Positions 4,441-13,835 of a stretch of 64,000 bases of DNA are shown here, piece by piece. Origin of the DNA: Spirochaetae bacterium HGW-Spirochaetae-1. GTDB lineage: Bacteria > Spirochaetota > UBA4802 > UBA5550. Both the position numbers and the translations under genes were made by a program. Below the pieces are notes generated by a model. The model did no database searches, had not been told where the DNA came from, and saw nothing but the letters and a program-made list of their open reading frames with translations. Position 1 is the first letter of the stretch; every line of letters starts with the position of its first letter. Location: contig PGXY01000002.1 of the NCBI GenBank assembly GCA_002839375.1, positions 473,037-537,036 of the forward strand, written 5' to 3'.

Positions 4441-7182
4441 TCAGTGGACTTTATCTGAAAGATGCGTGTTTCTCTCATTTATCTGCTTGTTGGGGATGAT
4501 GTCAGCTCTTTTTTTCAGAAGATGTATGTTAAGGGTAAGAAGGTATTCGTGGATCATAGAGTGTATTCCTGCCAGATTTGACGGCTCCACAACCTTCAGT
4601 ATTTTTTCTTTTTTCCCCGACGATGTTTCAATAAGCATTTTACTTTTTATCAGATAATTCAACGCATTGCTGTAGTTTGCTATGGATAGAGATTCGGGAA
4701 GTTTAATCTCCTCCATGTGATACATCTGAACGCCCTTTTTACGTATAAGGTTTATGAGCTCCTTCTTTTCAGTCTTTGATGAAAGCGGGAGCAGGGTTGA
4801 AAAGGCAATGTAATATGATTCAAGATAATCCTGGATGATGGAGGCGTTGTTGCGAAGTTCAACGAATTTATTATCATGTATCTTCACCTCATCACCTTGC
4901 ATGGAAATCATCTTTTCATTCTGGAGAAATTGCAATGAGTTTCTGAATACTAATCCGGCATCTTCATCACCACGGTTAATAAACTCCATGGAAAAGAGTG
5001 ACCGGAGAGAGAGGAATATTTTTTCAATATCTCCAGCGGGAACTGATTCCCTTTCGCTGCACATAAGAACTGCCAGTGATGCATACGATAACGGGTACAG
5101 GTGATTGATTATTGTGTTTTTGTAAAAGTTAATTTTTGGTCTGTCCTCTTCATCGAGAAGATAAATATTTTCCATACTGTTCTTATCCGGCGTATTGCGG
5201 TCATCCCTGATATCGCTGATGATCCCGTCATTCATGAACTTATCAAGTATAGAATCCAGCTGTGCCGCTATGCTGTCCTGAGTTTGCAATTCTTTTGCCA
5301 GAGGAGCCTTGATTTCTGAAAAATATTGAACAAGATGAGTTATCCTGCCCAGCAGTGCTTCCTTCTGAAAACCCCGGCCAGGAGAGGAGAGCAGGGCCGT
5401 TGACACAATGGGAACGGGCATCGCCATGGCTATCTCGCTGATTTTCACCATGAGGTGATCGGCGATTTCACTAACGTCCTCTCCTGTTGTATCGTATTGT
5501 TTTTTAAGATCGCTATAATAAATGGGATCGTTGAATGAAAGATATACCTTTCCGTAATTTCTTTTCAGGAGGCCACGGCTTTTAACAAAATTGGAGGTTG
5601 ATTCGGATTTTTTTTCCTTTCCCTTGAGTTCCTTATGGTACGAATTTTCTTCAAGAATGCGGTTGTAATTTATTGTGGTGGGAACAAAAACCATGTCGCT
5701 GGCGTATCCCTCTTCGATGGCCTCTATCATGTATTTGAGTATTCCCATCTTGGGAGTGAGCAGCTTGCCTGAGCGGGTCCTTCCGCCCTCAGCGAAGAAT
5801 TCAATACTGTATCCTTCGCTGACAAGGGTCTTTATATACTGCTTAAGTATGGTTGTGTAGAGCTTCATGCCCTTGAAGGAACGGCGCATAAAAAAGGCCC
5901 CGGATTTGCGGAAGATGAGACCCATGGGGAAAAAAGTCAGGTTTGCACCTGCCACGATATGCGGGGGGATCATCTTTTCCCTGTAGAATATGCTGGATAC
6001 AATGAGATAGTCCATGTGGCTTTTATGGCTCGGGGCTATTACCACAGGACCCTTGCGGGATGCTTCCCTAATTTTTTTTATATCCTCGATGTCATATTCT
6101 ATTCCGTCGAAGATTTTCCTGAATATGAAGCGCAATGTCTTCTCGAAATATTTTATCGTAATGATGGAAAAGTCGGCAGCTATCTCATCAAAATATTTAT
6201 ATGCGTTGCGGCGCAGTTTTTTCTCAGAGAGACCTTCATCTTTCATGAGAAGCTGAATGGTATCAAGCGTATTTGAATGATAGAGAACCTGCTCCATCAT
6301 CTCCTGTCTTGATTTTATGACCGGACCCAGTATCGAACGTTTTTCATAGTCATATGTTTCCAGAAGCCTGCTGCGAATTTCCCGTGTGAGATGTTTTATG
6401 TCATCATGACCGGCAAGTTCAATTTCTTCTTTGAGGTTGATGGGAGAGGCTATCCTGACAAAGGCAGGGGTTATGCTTTTCCACATGGCGAAGAGGCCTG
6501 AGAAGAGACCCCTGTCTCCCGTTGCCCGCATTTCCATGAATGTTCTTTTTGCTTTTGTTTTTTCAGGGTTCCGGTTCCAGAAGATAATCTGGGGAAAAAT
6601 AAAAATCGGTTCTTCAATATTCTTCTGAATGCTGAGAAGATATTCAAGAGTGTCGGGCCTCTCTTTCAGATAGTTGCTGATGAAGAGCTTTTGCGATAGA
6701 AGTGCTATGAGGATGCTGTGGCCGGATTGTACTACATCTTTTATATACTCTTCGTCGGAAATGTGTGTCCTGTCAACATCACTGAAGATATCTTTGATGA
6801 AGAGATATATCCGATTGAAGAGGCCGGTGACCATTTGAAGAAGGTAGGGCGAATTCCCCAGGGCCAGTTCAGGTGTATCAAAGCCGTGGCGTCTCAGGAT
6901 GTTGTTGAGGATCAGTGTGGAAGTGATGGAGCTCTGGAACGAGCCGAATACGACGCGGCCTTTCTTGGAGTATTCTTTCAGAATAGAAAGACCTTCGTTG
7001 CCAAAATCCACTTTTCGGAAGAGCAGGTGGATTATTCTTTCGATGATGATATTTGAGCGCCTGTTAATGATGCCCTGTTGTATAAATGTGGAAACATTCA
7101 TGTCGCTTTTTCTCATTCTTGTACCCTGTTGTTCTCGATTATTTTCACCCGCCTGATGCGGATATTTGTAGCGAACTGACAT
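4441..7182 (-). CDS. plsB: glycerol-3-phosphate O-acyltransferase PlsB
   Basis: 913 aa. The acyltransferase block I VIAPSHKSHMDYL (HX4D), GAFFMRR and FAEGGRTRSGKLL align along the length with E. coli PlsB. The start is uncertain because the N-terminus is about 75 aa longer than E. coli. Confidence 0.85.
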   Translation of the reverse strand: MSVRYKYPHQAGENNREQQGTRMRKSDMNVSTFIQQGIINRRSNIIIERIIHLLFRKVDFGNEGLSILKEYSKKGRVVFGSFQSSITSTLILNNILRRHGFDTPELALGNSPYLLQMVTGLFNRIYLFIKDIFSDVDRTHISDEEYIKDVVQSGHSILIALLSQKLFISNYLKERPDTLEYLLSIQKNIEEPIFIFPQIIFWNRNPEKTKAKRTFMEMRATGDRGLFSGLFAMWKSITPAFVRIASPINLKEEIELAGHDDIKHLTREIRSRLLETYDYEKRSILGPVIKSRQEMMEQVLYHSNTLDTIQLLMKDEGLSEKKLRRNAYKYFDEIAADFSIITIKYFEKTLRFIFRKIFDGIEYDIEDIKKIREASRKGPVVIAPSHKSHMDYLIVSSIFYREKMIPPHIVAGANLTFFPMGLIFRKSGAFFMRRSFKGMKLYTTILKQYIKTLVSEGYSIEFFAEGGRTRSGKLLTPKMGILKYMIEAIEEGYASDMVFVPTTINYNRILEENSYHKELKGKEKKSESTSNFVKSRGLLKRNYGKVYLSFNDPIYYSDLKKQYDTTGEDVSEIADHLMVKISEIAMAMPVPIVSTALLSSPGRGFQKEALLGRITHLVQYFSEIKAPLAKELQTQDSIAAQLDSILDKFMNDGIISDIRDDRNTPDKNSMENIYLLDEEDRPKINFYKNTIINHLYPLSYASLAVLMCSERESVPAGDIEKIFLSLRSLFSMEFINRGDEDAGLVFRNSLQFLQNEKMISMQGDEVKIHDNKFVELRNNASIIQDYLESYYIAFSTLLPLSSKTEKKELINLIRKKGVQMYHMEEIKLPESLSIANYSNALNYLIKSKMLIETSSGKKEKILKVVEPSNLAGIHSMIHEYLLTLNIHLLKKRADIIPNKQINERNTHLSDKVH

Positions 7183-7223: not shown

Positions 7224-8015
7224 TCAGAAACGGAGACCGTCCTGGATGGATTCGCGGGATTTATTTATAAGATCCTGTATTGTATTCTCATCGTAGGCAG
7301 ATGTATCGATTGGTTTGTGTATGGTCATTGTTGCATTGCCGGGGAAGAGAGCCATGGAGCTGGCCGGAAGAATGTCCTTGGTGCCGCTGATAGTAACGGG
7401 AAGCACGGGCAATTGCATGTCCAGGGCGAATTTAAATGCACCCTTTTTAAATTCCGTGAGATTGCCCGTTTTACTCCGGGTCCCCTCGGGGAAAAAAATG
7501 ATGGATGTCCCGCCGGTAATTCTTTTTTTTGCCTCGTTGATGGACGCCAGCGCCGATGCGTGATCGGAACGGTTGATAAAGATGTGACCGGCTTTATAGC
7601 AGTAATAGCCCAGGACCGGCGCCTTGCGAAGTTCTACTTTCATGACCCAGCGGAAGTCAAGGGGAAGCCAGCCGTATATGGCGAAAATATCAAACTGGCT
7701 CTGGTGGTTCGCCACAACCACATAGGACTGATTGGGATCAATATTTTCCTCACCTTTAAGGGTCATTCTCATGGGGGTAATAAAACTGTTGAAGCGGGCC
7801 CAGAGGATACCGCTGATCTGGCCGGCTCTCTCTCCAAAGAGCCAGATAATAGGGACGGCCGCTATAGTGAGGATTATGGTGCTGAGTCCCAGTAACGGTA
7901 AAAAAATGAGCCATTTATATATCTGGTAAACGGCAAATAATGCCTTTATTTCACGCAGTTCTTTTCCGGGAATATATAAATTTTCTTTTGCTTTTTCCAA
8001 ATTACCAAATTTCAT
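7224..8015 (-). CDS. plsC: 1-acyl-sn-glycerol-3-phosphate acyltransferase PlsC-like
   Basis: 263 aa with an N-terminal TM segment. Motifs VANHQSQFD (HX4D) and FPEGTRS are present. There is a good RBS (AAAGAGGA) before the ATG at 8015. Confidence 0.8.
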   Translation of the reverse strand: MKFGNLEKAKENLYIPGKELREIKALFAVYQIYKWLIFLPLLGLSTIILTIAAVPIIWLFGERAGQISGILWARFNSFITPMRMTLKGEENIDPNQSYVVVANHQSQFDIFAIYGWLPLDFRWVMKVELRKAPVLGYYCYKAGHIFINRSDHASALASINEAKKRITGGTSIIFFPEGTRSKTGNLTEFKKGAFKFALDMQLPVLPVTISGTKDILPASSMALFPGNATMTIHKPIDTSAYDENTIQDLINKSRESIQDGLRF

Positions 8016-8076
8016 CAGATCCTCTTTGTTTTAATAAAAAAAAATTTTTTAAAAAAACTATCAAAGTAATTTAAAA

Positions 8077-8094
8077 GGACTGACCAGTCAGTCC
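8077..8094. promoter_or_regulatory. 18-bp palindrome GGACTGAC-CA-GTCAGTCC in divergent plsC / TetR promoter region; candidate TetR-family operator
   Basis: Exact 8-2-8 inverted repeat seen in sequence, 62 bp upstream of the plsC start and 347 bp upstream of the TetR ORF. TetR-family regulators typically bind such palindromes. Confidence 0.4.
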
Positions 8095-8440
8095 GATTAT
8101 TATAGAAGATATATCATAGTCTTACTTTGTCAAGAATAATATTGTCTTTTTAGCATAAATTGGCTTCAGACATATTCTTGTTCTTATAAAGAATTTTTAT
8201 ATCAATCGAATTTAGTTATTGAGCATAAAGAACAGAAAATTAAAAATGTTGACCATCCCCATAATTATTTTTCAAAGTTTCATTATGAGATATGGTTTTC
8301 TTGAAATTGTATCAAAGAAATAAAATAGAATAAGAAAATATGGCGCAATATCAACAATCATTAAACAATTAAGCCATGTGACCGGCATTACCTGATGATA
8401 ATCGTATGATATGCAAAACCGCAGAGCAGAGAGGTAGAAT

Positions 8441-9412
8441 ATGGACAAAGAAATAGAAAGGCAAAAACGTATCGCTTTTTATAGTGAAATCGGGCAGTTT
8501 TTTTCCCCCGATGCTACCTTTAACCGTCACAGCTTTCAGCAGACCCTTGCGGAGACATATGGGAAAATAGAATATGGACAAAATGATGTAGATAATCTGC
8601 CGGGTTCAAAGGCAGCGTGGCTTACGGAATACCTGTCCAGTATTTTTGAGTATCTGCAGGAAAAGGGCATGTCGCATAAATCCATGGATATCTTCAATGC
8701 TGCCCTGGAGGTTTCAGAGTCTCATGGCATAAGCTCAATTTCCATGCCGACAAAATATCTACGACAGATGATTATCAGCTATGAGGAAAAGAAGAGTACC
8801 CGGACCGACAAGAAAATATCCCCCGATGACAAGCGAGATCTTATTTTCAGGGCAGCAGTAAAAATATTTGCAGAAAAGGGCTTTCATAAGGCTACTATGG
8901 ACGAGATTGCCTCCCAGGCAGGAATGGGCAAGGGTTCCATATACCGGCACTTTAAGAGTAAGGAGGAGCTCCTCAGGCAGCTTCTCAATGAGAAGTACGA
9001 GGAAATAATGAAGCGCATTATACAGATTTTCTCCCGTGAACGCGACGTACTTCAGTATATAAAGGAAATGATAGAGGTCTGGATCGATTTCATAGATAAA
9101 AATCACGTAGTCTATCGGTTGATACAGAATGAAAGCATCGGGCTTATCGTCGGTGAAAATACCATGTTTTATGATTACCTCATAACTCATCTGCCAATGT
9201 TCAAAGAAAAAATACTGGCCATGAACAAGGAGAACCGGCTCAAGACCACTAACTTCTACACGGTTTTTTATGGCATACTCGGTTTTATCGACGGCGTTGT
9301 ACAGAAATGGTTTAGAAGGGGGATGAATTACTCCCTTCAGGAGGAAGTTCCTGTCATAATAGAGGTCCTTTTTAATGGATTCGTTGGCGCTTCTTCTTCC
9401 GGGACGAAGTGA
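8441..9412 (+). CDS. TetR/AcrR-family transcriptional regulator with about 125-aa N-terminal extension
   Basis: The TetR HTH IFAEKGFHKATMDEIASQAGMGKGSIYRHFKSKEELL lies at residues 140-175, followed by a ligand-binding-like helical domain. The N-terminal region is non-repetitive protein-like sequence in the same frame. An alternative internal start (MPTKYL...) is possible. Confidence 0.7.
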   Translation: MDKEIERQKRIAFYSEIGQFFSPDATFNRHSFQQTLAETYGKIEYGQNDVDNLPGSKAAWLTEYLSSIFEYLQEKGMSHKSMDIFNAALEVSESHGISSISMPTKYLRQMIISYEEKKSTRTDKKISPDDKRDLIFRAAVKIFAEKGFHKATMDEIASQAGMGKGSIYRHFKSKEELLRQLLNEKYEEIMKRIIQIFSRERDVLQYIKEMIEVWIDFIDKNHVVYRLIQNESIGLIVGENTMFYDYLITHLPMFKEKILAMNKENRLKTTNFYTVFYGILGFIDGVVQKWFRRGMNYSLQEEVPVIIEVLFNGFVGASSSGTK

Positions 9413-9529
9413 TCCCGGGCCGTATAGGGAATTCACGGTGCCTTGGAAAATATGGTTGACGATTGAATCACCCTTTTTTAAATAAAATAATCGGGACGGC
9501 ATGATCGTTATGCGTTATGCTCCAATCAA

Positions 9530-10786
9530 ATGATAACTACAGGATGTACTATGGAAAGTAATAGTAAAATAATCGGTGAAAATATGTACCGGTTCCAATC
9601 GGCCCTTGCCGAGAGCGGTTCTTCTCTGGAAGACTTTATCCGTGAGAATTACACCCGGAAATGGCTTTCCGATGAGCTTTTTCATGCAGCCGCGGTGAGG
9701 ACGACATTCGTCCATGCCATAAACCAGTTCCTGGTCAATGAAGGGCTCTTCAATCTGGAAAAAGTCATGCTCAGCATTATCACCGACCCGCTGGCCCATG
9801 ACATAGAGCACACTCCTTCTATACAGTATAAAGGGCATACGTATCTGACCACGCACAGCATGATCTATAGCAAATTCCTCGCCTGTTCCAATCCAAAACT
9901 GAAAGGTATATTCGTTGATTCGCCCAATATCCGGCTTGAACTGGAAGATCCCAACAATGTGCAGCGCGGGAAATATCTGGCCGATTTTTCCCAGATTGAC
10001 ATTGAAATGCGGAGAAACAGGAATATCACCCTTGAAGACTACTACACAAAGAAGTCCATGGTGCTCGATATTCTTCGCCAGGACATGGATGTTGCGAAAA
10101 GTCTTTTCGAGAGAATGATCGTATTCGCCTGCGAGGAAATAAACAGGAAAAACAGTGAAAACCTGAAGGCCCTGGGAGTGGTGATTGAAGTGCCGAAAAT
10201 TCCTTTTCCATCCTTTCACAAGGATGATGCGGTGAAGAAACACGGCGCCAGGCACCATGAAGAAAAATGCGGTGAAGATACAAAAGCTCAGTTTTTCTGG
10301 ATCACGGGACTGCTCCGCGAGAACTACGATCTTATCTATCCGTATCTCAATGCCGACGGAACCAGGGCAGTCATGTCCGATGTCGGTTCGGAGAATATTT
10401 TCAATTATGACATACTGGCGAAAAGCATCGATTCAAAAACAGGGAAGCAGACGCAGGCCAGAGAAATTCTTTCCGGCGCTATCCGCGAGTGGCTCTTTGA
10501 ACCTATAATTGAACGCATCATCGATAACAAGGTCCTTCCCGTGCGGCCTGAAATCAGGGACGGCGGCATTGTAAATATCAATGAGCTGGGAGGATATGGC
10601 CCCTTCCTGTATTTTGCCTCCATGAAGGATGATAGCGGACGGTCCCTGTTCCCTGACACCTTCGGCGGCGGAATCGGCGTTGAGCGAAGCCTTTATGCTA
10701 TTTTGCGCGGCGATAAAATTAAGAAAATCGACGATATAACCTTTTTTGGGAAGAATCCCGATTCTCATCCGGTATATCTCTATTGA
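9530..10786 (+). CDS. class II aminoacyl-tRNA-synthetase-like catalytic-core protein (AsnRS/AspRS/AsnA-type paralogue) lacking anticodon-binding domain
   Basis: 418 aa. Motif 1-like VRTTFVHAINQFLVNEGLF, motif 2-like SPNIRLELEDPNNVQRGKYLADFSQIDIEM and motif 3 GGGIGVERSLYAIL all align with AsnS in the next gene (FRAE..., GFGLGFERL). There is no N-terminal OB fold. The antisense ORF 9515-10258 is rejected. Confidence 0.6.
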   Translation: MITTGCTMESNSKIIGENMYRFQSALAESGSSLEDFIRENYTRKWLSDELFHAAAVRTTFVHAINQFLVNEGLFNLEKVMLSIITDPLAHDIEHTPSIQYKGHTYLTTHSMIYSKFLACSNPKLKGIFVDSPNIRLELEDPNNVQRGKYLADFSQIDIEMRRNRNITLEDYYTKKSMVLDILRQDMDVAKSLFERMIVFACEEINRKNSENLKALGVVIEVPKIPFPSFHKDDAVKKHGARHHEEKCGEDTKAQFFWITGLLRENYDLIYPYLNADGTRAVMSDVGSENIFNYDILAKSIDSKTGKQTQAREILSGAIREWLFEPIIERIIDNKVLPVRPEIRDGGIVNINELGGYGPFLYFASMKDDSGRSLFPDTFGGGIGVERSLYAILRGDKIKKIDDITFFGKNPDSHPVYLY

Positions 10787-10961
10787 TATCAATTCAGCGG
10801 GGGGTCTTAAAATACTTATTCCTTTTTGGACCCTCCTGTTTCTGATATCCGTAATTATTTATCATACCGTATGCATGTTCCCCGGAAGTACTCCTTATTC
10901 CTGATGACAAATCAATACCTATGGAAACCGGGTTTGTGAAAACATTAATTCTGAACAATAG

Positions 10962-10990
10962 TTGACAAAAATACGAATCCGAATAGCTCT
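10962..10990 (+). promoter_or_regulatory. candidate promoter / shared upstream motif TTGACAAAAATACGAATCCGAATAGC upstream of asnS
   Basis: Consensus -35 TTGACA 57 nt before the asnS ATG. It shares TTGACAAAA...AATCC...TAGC with the element at 12471. The -10 is weak. Confidence 0.3.
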
Positions 10991-11018
10991 ATTCCAAACT
11001 GAAGAGGGGAGACGACTT

Positions 11019-12404
11019 ATGAATACTGCCAGTGTAAAAACCATATTGACCATGACGGGGAGCAATCAGACTCTTACTGTTGACGGCTGGGTCCGGACGA
11101 AACGTGAATCGAAGGGAGTGTCTTTCCTCGAGTTAAATGACGGTTCAACCATTAAAAATCTGCAGGTAGTGGTAGAGGCCGCCTATCCCGGTTACGAAGA
11201 GATTCTAGCGAGAATCAATACGGGTTGCAGTCTGTCCGTGCAGGGTAGACTTGTCTCTTCGGAAGGCACCGGCCAGACAGTGGAGGTTAAGGCTGAAAAT
11301 ATAACTGTAATAGGCGAAACACCGCAGGATTTTGTCCTGCAGAAAAAGCGTCACAGCTTTGAATTTCTCCGGGAGATAGCCCACCTGAGAGCCAGGACCA
11401 ACTCTTTCGGCGCCGTAGCACGGGTGCGCAGCGCCATGAGCTATGCCATACACAGCTTTTTCCAGGAGCGCGGGTTCCTGTATATTCATACACCAATTAT
11501 CACAGGCAGCGACTGTGAAGGGGCCGGGGAGATGTTCCAGGTAACCACTATCCCGTTGGAGACCGTTCCACTGGTCAATGGTCAGGTCGATTATTCAAGA
11601 GATTTTTTCGGCAAGAAGGCATCCCTTACCGTCAGCGGTCAGCTTGAAGGAGAAACATACGCCCTTGCACTGAAAAATATTTATACATTTGGTCCCACAT
11701 TCCGCGCTGAAAACTCCAATACTTCAAGGCATCTTGCCGAATTCTGGATGGTAGAACCGGAAATGGCATTCTGCAATATCACGGGAAACATGGATACGGC
11801 CGAAGAATTTTTGAAATACATCTTTAAGTATGTTCTCGATACCTGCGCCGATGACATGGATTTTTTTGACAGTAGGATAAGCAAGGGGATTATTGAGAAT
11901 TTGCAGAATATAATAGACAGTAATTTTGAGAGGGTAGCCTACACCGAGGCCGTTGAACAACTGCTCAAAGCCGGCCAATCCTTTGAGTTCCCGGTAAAAT
12001 GGGGCATCGATCTGCAGAGCGAGCATGAAAAATTCTTAACGGAAAAAATTTATAATAAACCGGTCATTCTCACCGATTATCCCCGTGAGATAAAGGCCTT
12101 TTACATGAAACAGAACGATGACGGGAAAACAGTGCGGGCCATGGATGTTCTGGTGCCGCGTCTCGGTGAAATAATCGGCGGCAGCGAACGTGAGGACAGC
12201 TACGATAAACTCGTACAGAGGATCCGTGAAAACGATCTGAATCCCGATGATTATTGGTGGTACCTGGACCTGCGCAGGTTCGGGTCGGTTCCCCACGCGG
12301 GATTTGGACTGGGATTTGAACGACTAATACAGTTTGTTACGGGGATGCAGAATATCCGCGATGTAATTCCCTATCCCAGGGCAGTTAATTCCCTTGATTT
12401 CTAA
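11019..12404 (+). CDS. asnS: asparaginyl-tRNA synthetase
   Basis: Anticodon-binding OB fold, motif 2 [21 protein letters not shown] and motif 3 [15 protein letters not shown]. The start is set at the ATG at 11019, preceded by GGGGAG with a 7-nt spacer. The ORF-track start at 10962 is a TTG. Confidence 0.9.
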
Positions 12405-12470
12405 GTTTAACGGGAACAACGGAACAGCTGATTCAGGTTCAGCGAATATCCCGTTGTTTTTGCGATAATA

Positions 12471-12499
12471 ATTGACAAAATCTCAAATCCATTATAGCA
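12471..12499 (+). promoter_or_regulatory. candidate promoter / shared upstream motif TTGACAAAATCTCAAATCCATTATAGC upstream of M18 aminopeptidase gene
   Basis: Same TTGACAAAA...AATCC...TAGC architecture as at 10962, about 65 nt before the ATG at 12540. Confidence 0.3.
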
Positions 12500-12539
12500 G
12501 TAACCCCTAAGATAATATGCCTTCAGGCAGGAGCTGCGA

Positions 12540-13835
12540 ATGGACCAGGAAACCTTTAACCGGGGACTCATAGATTTTATCAACGAATCGCCCACGGCCT
12601 TTCATGCTGTTTCCGCCATGGAAAGCATGCTCAAAGCCGCGGGCTTCAGCGGACTCAATGAATCCGATGCCTGGTCTCTGGATGAGGGAAAAGGGTATTA
12701 CGTCATCCGGAATGGTTCATCGATTATTACCTTTACCACGGGAAAAAAAGATAAACATCCTACAGGCTTCCGTATGACGGGTGCCCACACCGACAGTCCA
12801 TGCCTTAAAATAAAACCTGATCCCCTTTTGAAAAACAACGGTTATGTACAACTGGGCGTAGAGGTCTATGGCGGAGCCCTTCTGAATCCCTGGTTTGACC
12901 GCGATCTATCTATTGCGGGACGAGTGAGCTTCCTTGACGAAAAAAATACAATCCGTTCATGCCTGGTGGATTTTAAAAGACCCGTTGCCTTTATTTCGAG
13001 TCTGGCCATACATTTCGACCGGGAAGCCAATAAGAACCGCTCAATAAATGCCCAGAAAGACCTTCCTCCCATCATAATGAACATGCCTGCAGGGGAATTC
13101 TCATTTTCAGAAATTCTATCGTCGGAACTTAAAAATCAGGGACTTTGTGCCGAGGGGATATCCGTCAATGATTTTGAACTTTATCTGTATGACACGCAGA
13201 GTTCTTCATTGCTGGGCATGAACAATGAATATATAGCAGGAGGAAGATTGGACAATCTCCTGAGCTGTTATACGGGAATTCAGGCCTTGATATACAGCGA
13301 TAGGTCCAACCCGTGCATGATGGTCTGCAATGATCATGAAGAGGTGGGAAGCGTTTCTTTTACCGGGGCTCAGGGGACCTTCCTGCGGTCCGTTCTGCAG
13401 CGGCTTTCCAGGGACCCGGAAAACTATTACCGGATGCTGAGCAGGTCCATGTTTATATCCATGGATAATGCACATGGAATTCATCCCAATTATGCCGATA
13501 AATATGATATAAATCATGGTCCTGTGCTCAACAAGGGGCCGGTAATTAAAATGAATGCCGGCCAGCGGTATGCGTCGGACAGTGAAACGGTTGCCGTGAT
13601 ACGGAGCATTGCATCGGGACTGGCTATACCGCTCCAGACATTTGTGATGAGGAGCGATCTGGCATGCGGAAGCACCATTGGTCCGCTAACATCGGCTGAG
13701 GTCGGTTTGAAAACTGTTGATATGGGTGTACCAACCTTTGCCATGCATTCCATTCGTGAAGTAGCGGGTTCAACAGATCCATTTTTACTTTTTTCACTGA
13801 TTTGCGGATTTAACAGTAGCAGTATAACTATTTAG
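12540..13835 (+). CDS. M18-family aminopeptidase (aspartyl aminopeptidase-like)
   Basis: 431 aa. Motifs GAHTDSPCLKIKP, NDHEEVGS and the C-terminal MRSDLACGSTIGP are typical of M18 aminopeptidases. Confidence 0.8.
   Translation: MDQETFNRGLIDFINESPTAFHAVSAMESMLKAAGFSGLNESDAWSLDEGKGYYVIRNGSSIITFTTGKKDKHPTGFRMTGAHTDSPCLKIKPDPLLKNNGYVQLGVEVYGGALLNPWFDRDLSIAGRVSFLDEKNTIRSCLVDFKRPVAFISSLAIHFDREANKNRSINAQKDLPPIIMNMPAGEFSFSEILSSELKNQGLCAEGISVNDFELYLYDTQSSSLLGMNNEYIAGGRLDNLLSCYTGIQALIYSDRSNPCMMVCNDHEEVGSVSFTGAQGTFLRSVLQRLSRDPENYYRMLSRSMFISMDNAHGIHPNYADKYDINHGPVLNKGPVIKMNAGQRYASDSETVAVIRSIASGLAIPLQTFVMRSDLACGSTIGPLTSAEVGLKTVDMGVPTFAMHSIREVAGSTDPFLLFSLICGFNSSSITI

Follow-up and report, generated by a model that had tools for sequence, protein, structure and literature searches.

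A bacterial family of stand-alone class IIb aminoacyl-tRNA synthetase cores, related to archaeal-type asparagine synthetase A, is recurrently encoded upstream of asnS

Introduction

Archaeal-type asparagine synthetase A (AS-AR), known from the 'AsnRS2' proteins of Pyrococcus abyssi and Pyrococcus furiosus (PDB 3P8T, 3REU, 3RL6 and 1NNH), is a stand-alone class IIb aminoacyl-tRNA synthetase (aaRS) core that has no anticodon-binding domain. The A-type asparagine synthetases have been reviewed as AspRS-like enzymes that synthesize asparagine independently of tRNA (PMC9437257). A link between asparagine synthesis and its use in tRNA charging has been reported in Lactobacillus bulgaricus, in which asparagine synthetase and AsnRS are co-regulated according to the title of Kim et al. 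(1996, J Bacteriol 178:2459), as cited in PMC3412718.

Here we analyse an aaRS-like gene located upstream of asnS in a 64,000-nucleotide stretch of DNA (the window) from the uncultured Spirochaetae bacterium HGW-Spirochaetae-1, and compare its product and its genomic context with these systems.

Results

The window contains an open reading frame on the forward strand (9530-10786, with a TGA stop codon at 10784-10786) that corresponds to a conserved aaRS-like gene upstream of asnS (Table 1). In the preliminary description its product was given as 418 aa, and the ORF of that length does exist, but translation most likely begins at ATG 9551, which yields 411 aa, because the ∼120 best homologues are all 411 aa long, gene callers give this same length in a 98%-identical contig and an AGGA sequence precedes this ATG. 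Starting at the in-frame ATG 9530 would lengthen the protein by 7 residues that are absent from all homologues, and residue numbers are therefore those of the 411-aa version. The gene is conserved well above chance, with E values for its homologues of 1e-190 to 1e-274. The downstream gene is a bona fide asnS (NF003037, 685.6 bits vs a cut-off of 414) whose product has the OB domain; its ATG is preceded by a GAGGGGAG ribosome-binding site, and the mechanically called ORF begins at TTG 10962.

Table 1. Features of the aaRS-like locus in window coordinates.
Feature	Position	Strand	Remarks
plsB	4441-7182	-	divergent from the TetR gene
plsC	7224-8015	-	divergent from the TetR gene
TetR-family regulator	8441..9412	+	long (323 aa); upstream neighbour of the aaRS-like gene
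AGGA	9541..9544	+	Shine-Dalgarno-like; 6 nt 5' of ATG 9551; read directly
aaRS-like gene	9551..10786	+	411-aa AS-AR-like class IIb aaRS catalytic-core protein; putative aspartate-ammonia ligase
Motif 1 and the loop after it, SIITDPLAHDIEHTP	9773..9817	+	aa 75-89; almost invariant in the family
Amino-acid-pocket segment TTHSMIYSKF	9848..9877	+	aa 100-109; compare THSMILHKQ in P. abyssi AS-AR
Motif 2, SPNIRLE...QRGKYLADFSQIDIE	9920..10006	+	aa 124-152, SPNIRLE...DFSQIDIE; R128, E130, F146, Q148, D150 and E152 retained
RENYD	10316..10330	+	aa 256-260; counterpart of AS-AR REFYD, including the invariant Arg
NYDIL ... EILSGAIREW	10403..10492	+	aa 285-314; class IIb Mg-ATP and amino-acid site: D287, E305, S308, G309, R312
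Motif 3, GGGIGVER	10664..10687	+	aa 372-379; invariant R379; next residue S
Intergenic spacer to asnS	10787..11018	+	232 nt
asnS	11019..12404	+	full-length asparaginyl-tRNA synthetase, 461 aa from ATG

A Pfam scan of the 411-aa protein gave a single weak match to tRNA-synt_2 (aa 46-264) and none to tRNA_anti-codon, hence no anticodon-binding OB fold. The AF2 model, of moderate confidence (pLDDT 72.7, lowest near motifs 1 and 2), forms two helices from the first 38 residues and consists of helices only over residues 1-63. Judging from its sequence, the protein corresponds to a class IIb aaRS catalytic core: motifs 1-3 are all present and an anticodon-binding domain is missing. This confirms, through the ORF, the Pfam match and NF003037, that a stand-alone class II core lies beside a genuine asnS, as had been proposed, and the absence of the OB fold is upheld by Pfam, the AF2 model and hhalign.

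The closest relatives of the protein are found in AS-AR. Its best NCBIfam matches were the AS-AR models NF005054 (5e-36) and NF005052, and its best PDB sequence matches were the AS-AR entries 1nnh and 3p8t. The equivalog cut-offs of the AS-AR models (NF005052-NF005055) were not reached (NF005054, 124.4 bits vs a cut-off of 309), and other representatives of the family scored 99-147 bits on these models. When the family was aligned to 33 AS-AR representatives by hhalign, the probability was 100 and the E value 8.6e-48 over 298 columns, with the alignment starting at residue 37 and spanning essentially the full AS-AR length. In a neighbour-joining tree (307 columns; a distance method only, with few outgroups) the family came out as monophyletic in all bootstraps (100/100) and fell within the AS-AR sequences on a long stem branch, and the clade formed by AS-AR and the family stood apart from AsnRS/AspRS in 87/100. 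The preliminary description had called for such a phylogeny and had favoured an AsnA-like or AS-AR-like aspartate-ammonia ligase. Profiles, solved structures and the tree all agree with this proposal in making AS-AR the nearest lineage, and the catalytic residues are kept. It nevertheless departs from a canonical AS-AR in failing the equivalog cut-off and in carrying ∼115 extra residues.

At the residue level, 19 of the 21 invariant or near-invariant non-glycine positions of AS-AR are identical in the 411-aa protein, and the motif-3 glycines are retained as well. The identical AS-AR positions include D79, S103, K108, P125, R128, E130, F146, Q148, D150, E152, R256, D287, E305, S308, G309, R312, R379 and F399. 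AS-AR position E105 corresponds to D145, a conservative change before an invariant Phe, and a near-invariant AS-AR Pro (P213 of P0166) falls in a loop that is replaced by an insertion. TDPL of motif 1 (aa 78-81) is also found in AS-AR and SPNIRLE of motif 2 is identical in the P. abyssi enzyme; THSMI..K and SPNIRLE are common to the family and AS-AR but are not present in AsnRS or AspRS, which at the position of TTHSMIYSKF carry VSGQLEGE and QSPQxxKQ, respectively. K108 corresponds to the invariant lysine of AS-AR/AspRS, a residue that binds the Asp side chain in AspRS structures. At both K108 and Q148 the protein follows AspRS/AS-AR and not AsnRS, which points to Asp as the substrate. Motif 2, earlier considered AsnRS-like, is instead AS-AR/AspRS-like (NIRLE...DFSQID), and the GGGIG sequence, which had been used as a ground for the AsnA-like reading, is the general AS-AR/class II G-x-G-x-G-x-x-R pattern. 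The NYDIL ... EILSGAIREW segment is split by a family-specific loop insertion, and the motifs AHDIEHTP, GGYGPFL and KNPDSHP are invariant in, and found only in, the family, with the AHDIEHTP loop close to the amino-acid site.

The family is tight, with ∼1000 clusters whose members are 57-98% identical, and comes exclusively from metagenome-assembled genomes (MAGs) of Spirochaetota, Cloacimonadota, Desulfobacterota, Lentisphaeria and Fibrobacterota. None of the 80 listed loci belongs to a cultured organism and no member is characterised; the proteins are currently annotated as 'hypothetical' or 'amino acid--tRNA ligase-related protein', or under the erroneous name 'aspartyl/asparaginyl-tRNA synthetase'. 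When 1.84e9 representatives were searched exhaustively with an HMM, just 155 matches were returned, ranked with ∼6 full-length family clusters first and ∼300-aa proteins next; in this second tier, four of the five proteins scanned exceed the AS-AR cut-off and the fifth (P0153) is narrowly below it. Identity is 0.60-0.81 in the core segments vs 0.40-0.60 in the insertions, some of which are missing in the divergent member P0126. The higher conservation of the core fits the embellishment of an unchanged catalytic core.

In 35 of 81 non-redundant family loci, asnS lies directly downstream on the same strand (median spacer ∼40 nt; 15 nt or shorter in 13 loci), so that the pairing of an asparagine synthetase-like gene with asnS, pointed out previously for this locus, is recurrent. 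The spacer is only 5-30 nt in related loci. No terminator-like site was found in the 232-nt spacer, scanning 7900-12700 against Rfam (E<=1) gave nothing relevant, neither a T-box nor another riboswitch, and the 9400-9560 region holds no inverted repeat or operator candidate. Glutamine synthetase (GS type I or III) is encoded nearby in 10/81 loci from three phyla, amt/PII in 6/81 and glnD in 2/81. Neighbours such as GS, an ammonium transporter and PII are expected for an ammonium-consuming enzyme.

Other recurrent neighbours were also considered. Five of the 81 loci have a gatB or gatA-aspS(ND) cluster, with a non-discriminating (ND) aspS, upstream of the family gene; gatCAB-aspS provides a tRNA-dependent route to Asn that has no need for free Asn, and these five loci count against the synthetase reading. 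hisF/hisH (8 loci) and purB (11 loci) were rejected as functional evidence and treated as synteny because they are mostly confined to single lineages and often on the opposite strand. The M18 (aspartyl-type) aminopeptidase gene 3' of asnS is conserved only in the window's own species and was not retained as a member of the unit.

The TetR-family gene upstream had been suggested to control the aaRS-like gene. The best profile matches of this regulator are fatty-acid regulators (FadR/FasR/FabR). A tblastn search with it against all 81 loci found homologues only in L073, L078 and L084 besides the window's own species, and directly adjoining the aaRS-like gene in L078 only. This ∼335-aa TetR family is widespread, and the three homologues sampled were all in unrelated contexts, one of them on a 4.8-Mb contig whose aaRS-like-asnS pair is elsewhere. 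A role as dedicated regulator is not supported, with homologues elsewhere in 3/3 sampled genomes and, outside the window's own species, near the gene in only 3/81 loci.

Discussion

We have described a family of proteins that forms an enlarged, still unnamed branch within the tRNA-synthetase-like A-type asparagine synthetases and that most likely makes Asn from aspartate and ammonia. The 411-aa protein is a divergent bacterial member of the AS-AR lineage that probably functions as an ammonia-dependent asparagine synthetase. Its fold, family placement, catalytic-residue conservation and neighbourhood pattern are direct results of this work, and from its homology to P. abyssi AS-AR we infer Asp as the substrate, NH3 as the nucleophile and Asn as the product. 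By the same homology, L-aspartate and Mg-ATP would bind in the aaRS active site, a beta-aspartyl-adenylate would be formed, and ammonia would attack it to give L-asparagine, AMP and PPi (EC 6.3.1.1). Co-transcription of the gene with asnS would be usual in Spirochaetota, so that the asparagine maker and its user would be expressed together; in other lineages the gene is found beside those for glutamine synthetase, an ammonium transporter and PII.

The long stem branch, the ∼115 extra residues, the AHDIEHTP loop and the change of GRH to GRY in the motif-2 loop leave room for a changed substrate or acceptor. The protein could then be a neofunctionalised AS-AR derivative that still forms an aminoacyl (aspartyl) adenylate but uses a nucleophile other than free ammonia, acts on another amino acid or works in a complex with AsnRS or the transamidosome, with the insertions and the His-rich loop supplying a new site. 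We consider this rather unlikely, although the five or six family-specific insertions and the N-terminal helical extension, the family-only invariant motifs, the scores below the AS-AR equivalog cut-off and the proximity to either Asn-tRNA route (asnS or gatCAB-aspS) are in its favour, because almost all the AS-AR invariant residues are kept, the insertions are the least conserved parts and some are missing in P0126, no gene for a carrier protein or another acceptor is a recurrent neighbour, and the ammonium-assimilation neighbours suit NH3 as the nucleophile. A more specific new role, which we regard as unlikely, would be the transfer of activated aspartate to a non-ammonia acceptor or docking on AsnRS or GatCAB-AspRS for asparagine or ammonia channelling, and the lineage-specific insertions and the invariant His/Asp/Glu-rich AHDIEHTP loop may be the corresponding adaptation. 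If true, this would establish an aaRS-paralogue partnership of a new kind.

The recurrent presence of asnS and of nitrogen-regulation genes (PII, glnD and GS) would also suit a non-catalytic, HisZ-like paralogue that senses Asp, Asn or ATP and modulates AsnRS, GS or another enzyme. Such a role is improbable, as a pure sensor would not need the conservation observed here: whatever the phylum, the catalytic Arg, Glu and Asp residues in motifs 2 and 3 and at the Mg site do not vary. The class IIb core has kept its ATP and amino-acid residues intact, and the N-terminal 36 residues align weakly with the hinge region of the neighbouring AsnRS; these features could instead indicate a truncated AspRS/AsnRS-like enzyme charging tRNA(Asn/Asp) or a tRNA-like acceptor without an anticodon-binding domain of its own. 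This is very improbable given that the OB domain is absent, the motif signatures are those of AS-AR and not of AsnRS/AspRS, the family nests within AS-AR, which is tRNA-independent (PMC9437257), and the window holds no tRNA gene; moreover, the asnS equivalog did not match the protein and aspS_nondisc gave 21 bits vs a cut-off of 368. From the precedents for truncated class II paralogues in general, an EpmA/GenX-like EF-P modifier and an amino-acid:carrier-protein ligase had also been considered, as had a decaying asnS duplicate; we discard all three as practically negligible. The protein has no match to the LysRS-like EpmA/GenX models TIGR00462/NF006828, although the neighbouring AsnRS matches both; efp, epmB and carrier-protein genes are not among the recurrent neighbours of family loci; the SerRS-like class IIa core and adjacent carrier-protein gene that mark the ligases are lacking; and the gene is an intact, conserved ORF in ∼1000 clusters with only 23% identity (over 221 aa) between its product and the adjacent AsnRS.

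If the asparagine synthetase reading is true, ∼1000 clusters from uncultured bacteria would represent an unrecognised asparagine synthetase that annotation pipelines have overlooked, and because of their mis-annotation metabolic reconstructions from MAGs could be misled into predicting asparagine auxotrophy or a second AsnRS/AspRS. The family would be a bacterial, insertion-bearing branch in the evolution of AspRS-like cores into amino-acid biosynthetic enzymes, and its analysis reveals that an asnA-like/asnS operon is conserved. The advance is a modest one, as a known enzyme class is extended and no new class is revealed.

Compared with the described systems, E. coli-type AsnA (PDB 11AS/12AS) is more distant, with 15% identity and a Z value below those of AS-AR, AsnRS and AspRS, and the 411-aa protein has no AsnA-type profile match in Pfam or NCBIfam. 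AsnRS (the neighbouring asnS product; PDB 1X54) has the OB anticodon-binding domain that is absent here, and carries ...GQLEGE and FWMVE where the family carries K108 and FSQID. The L. bulgaricus case, according to the title as cited, likewise links asparagine synthetase with AsnRS in regulation and proposes transcription antitermination for it, whereas here neither a T-box nor any other Rfam element was found 5' of the genes or in the spacer between them. Unlike AS-AR, the family is hosted only by bacteria (uncultured anaerobes), and its 411 aa (vs ∼290-320 aa in AS-AR) include an N-terminal two-helix extension (1-36) and five internal insertions, at about 155-176, 262-279, 291-303, 331-348 and 358-364. 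Both share TDPL, THSMI..K, SPNIRLE, RE(F/N)YD, SG..REW and G-x-G-x-G-x-ER.

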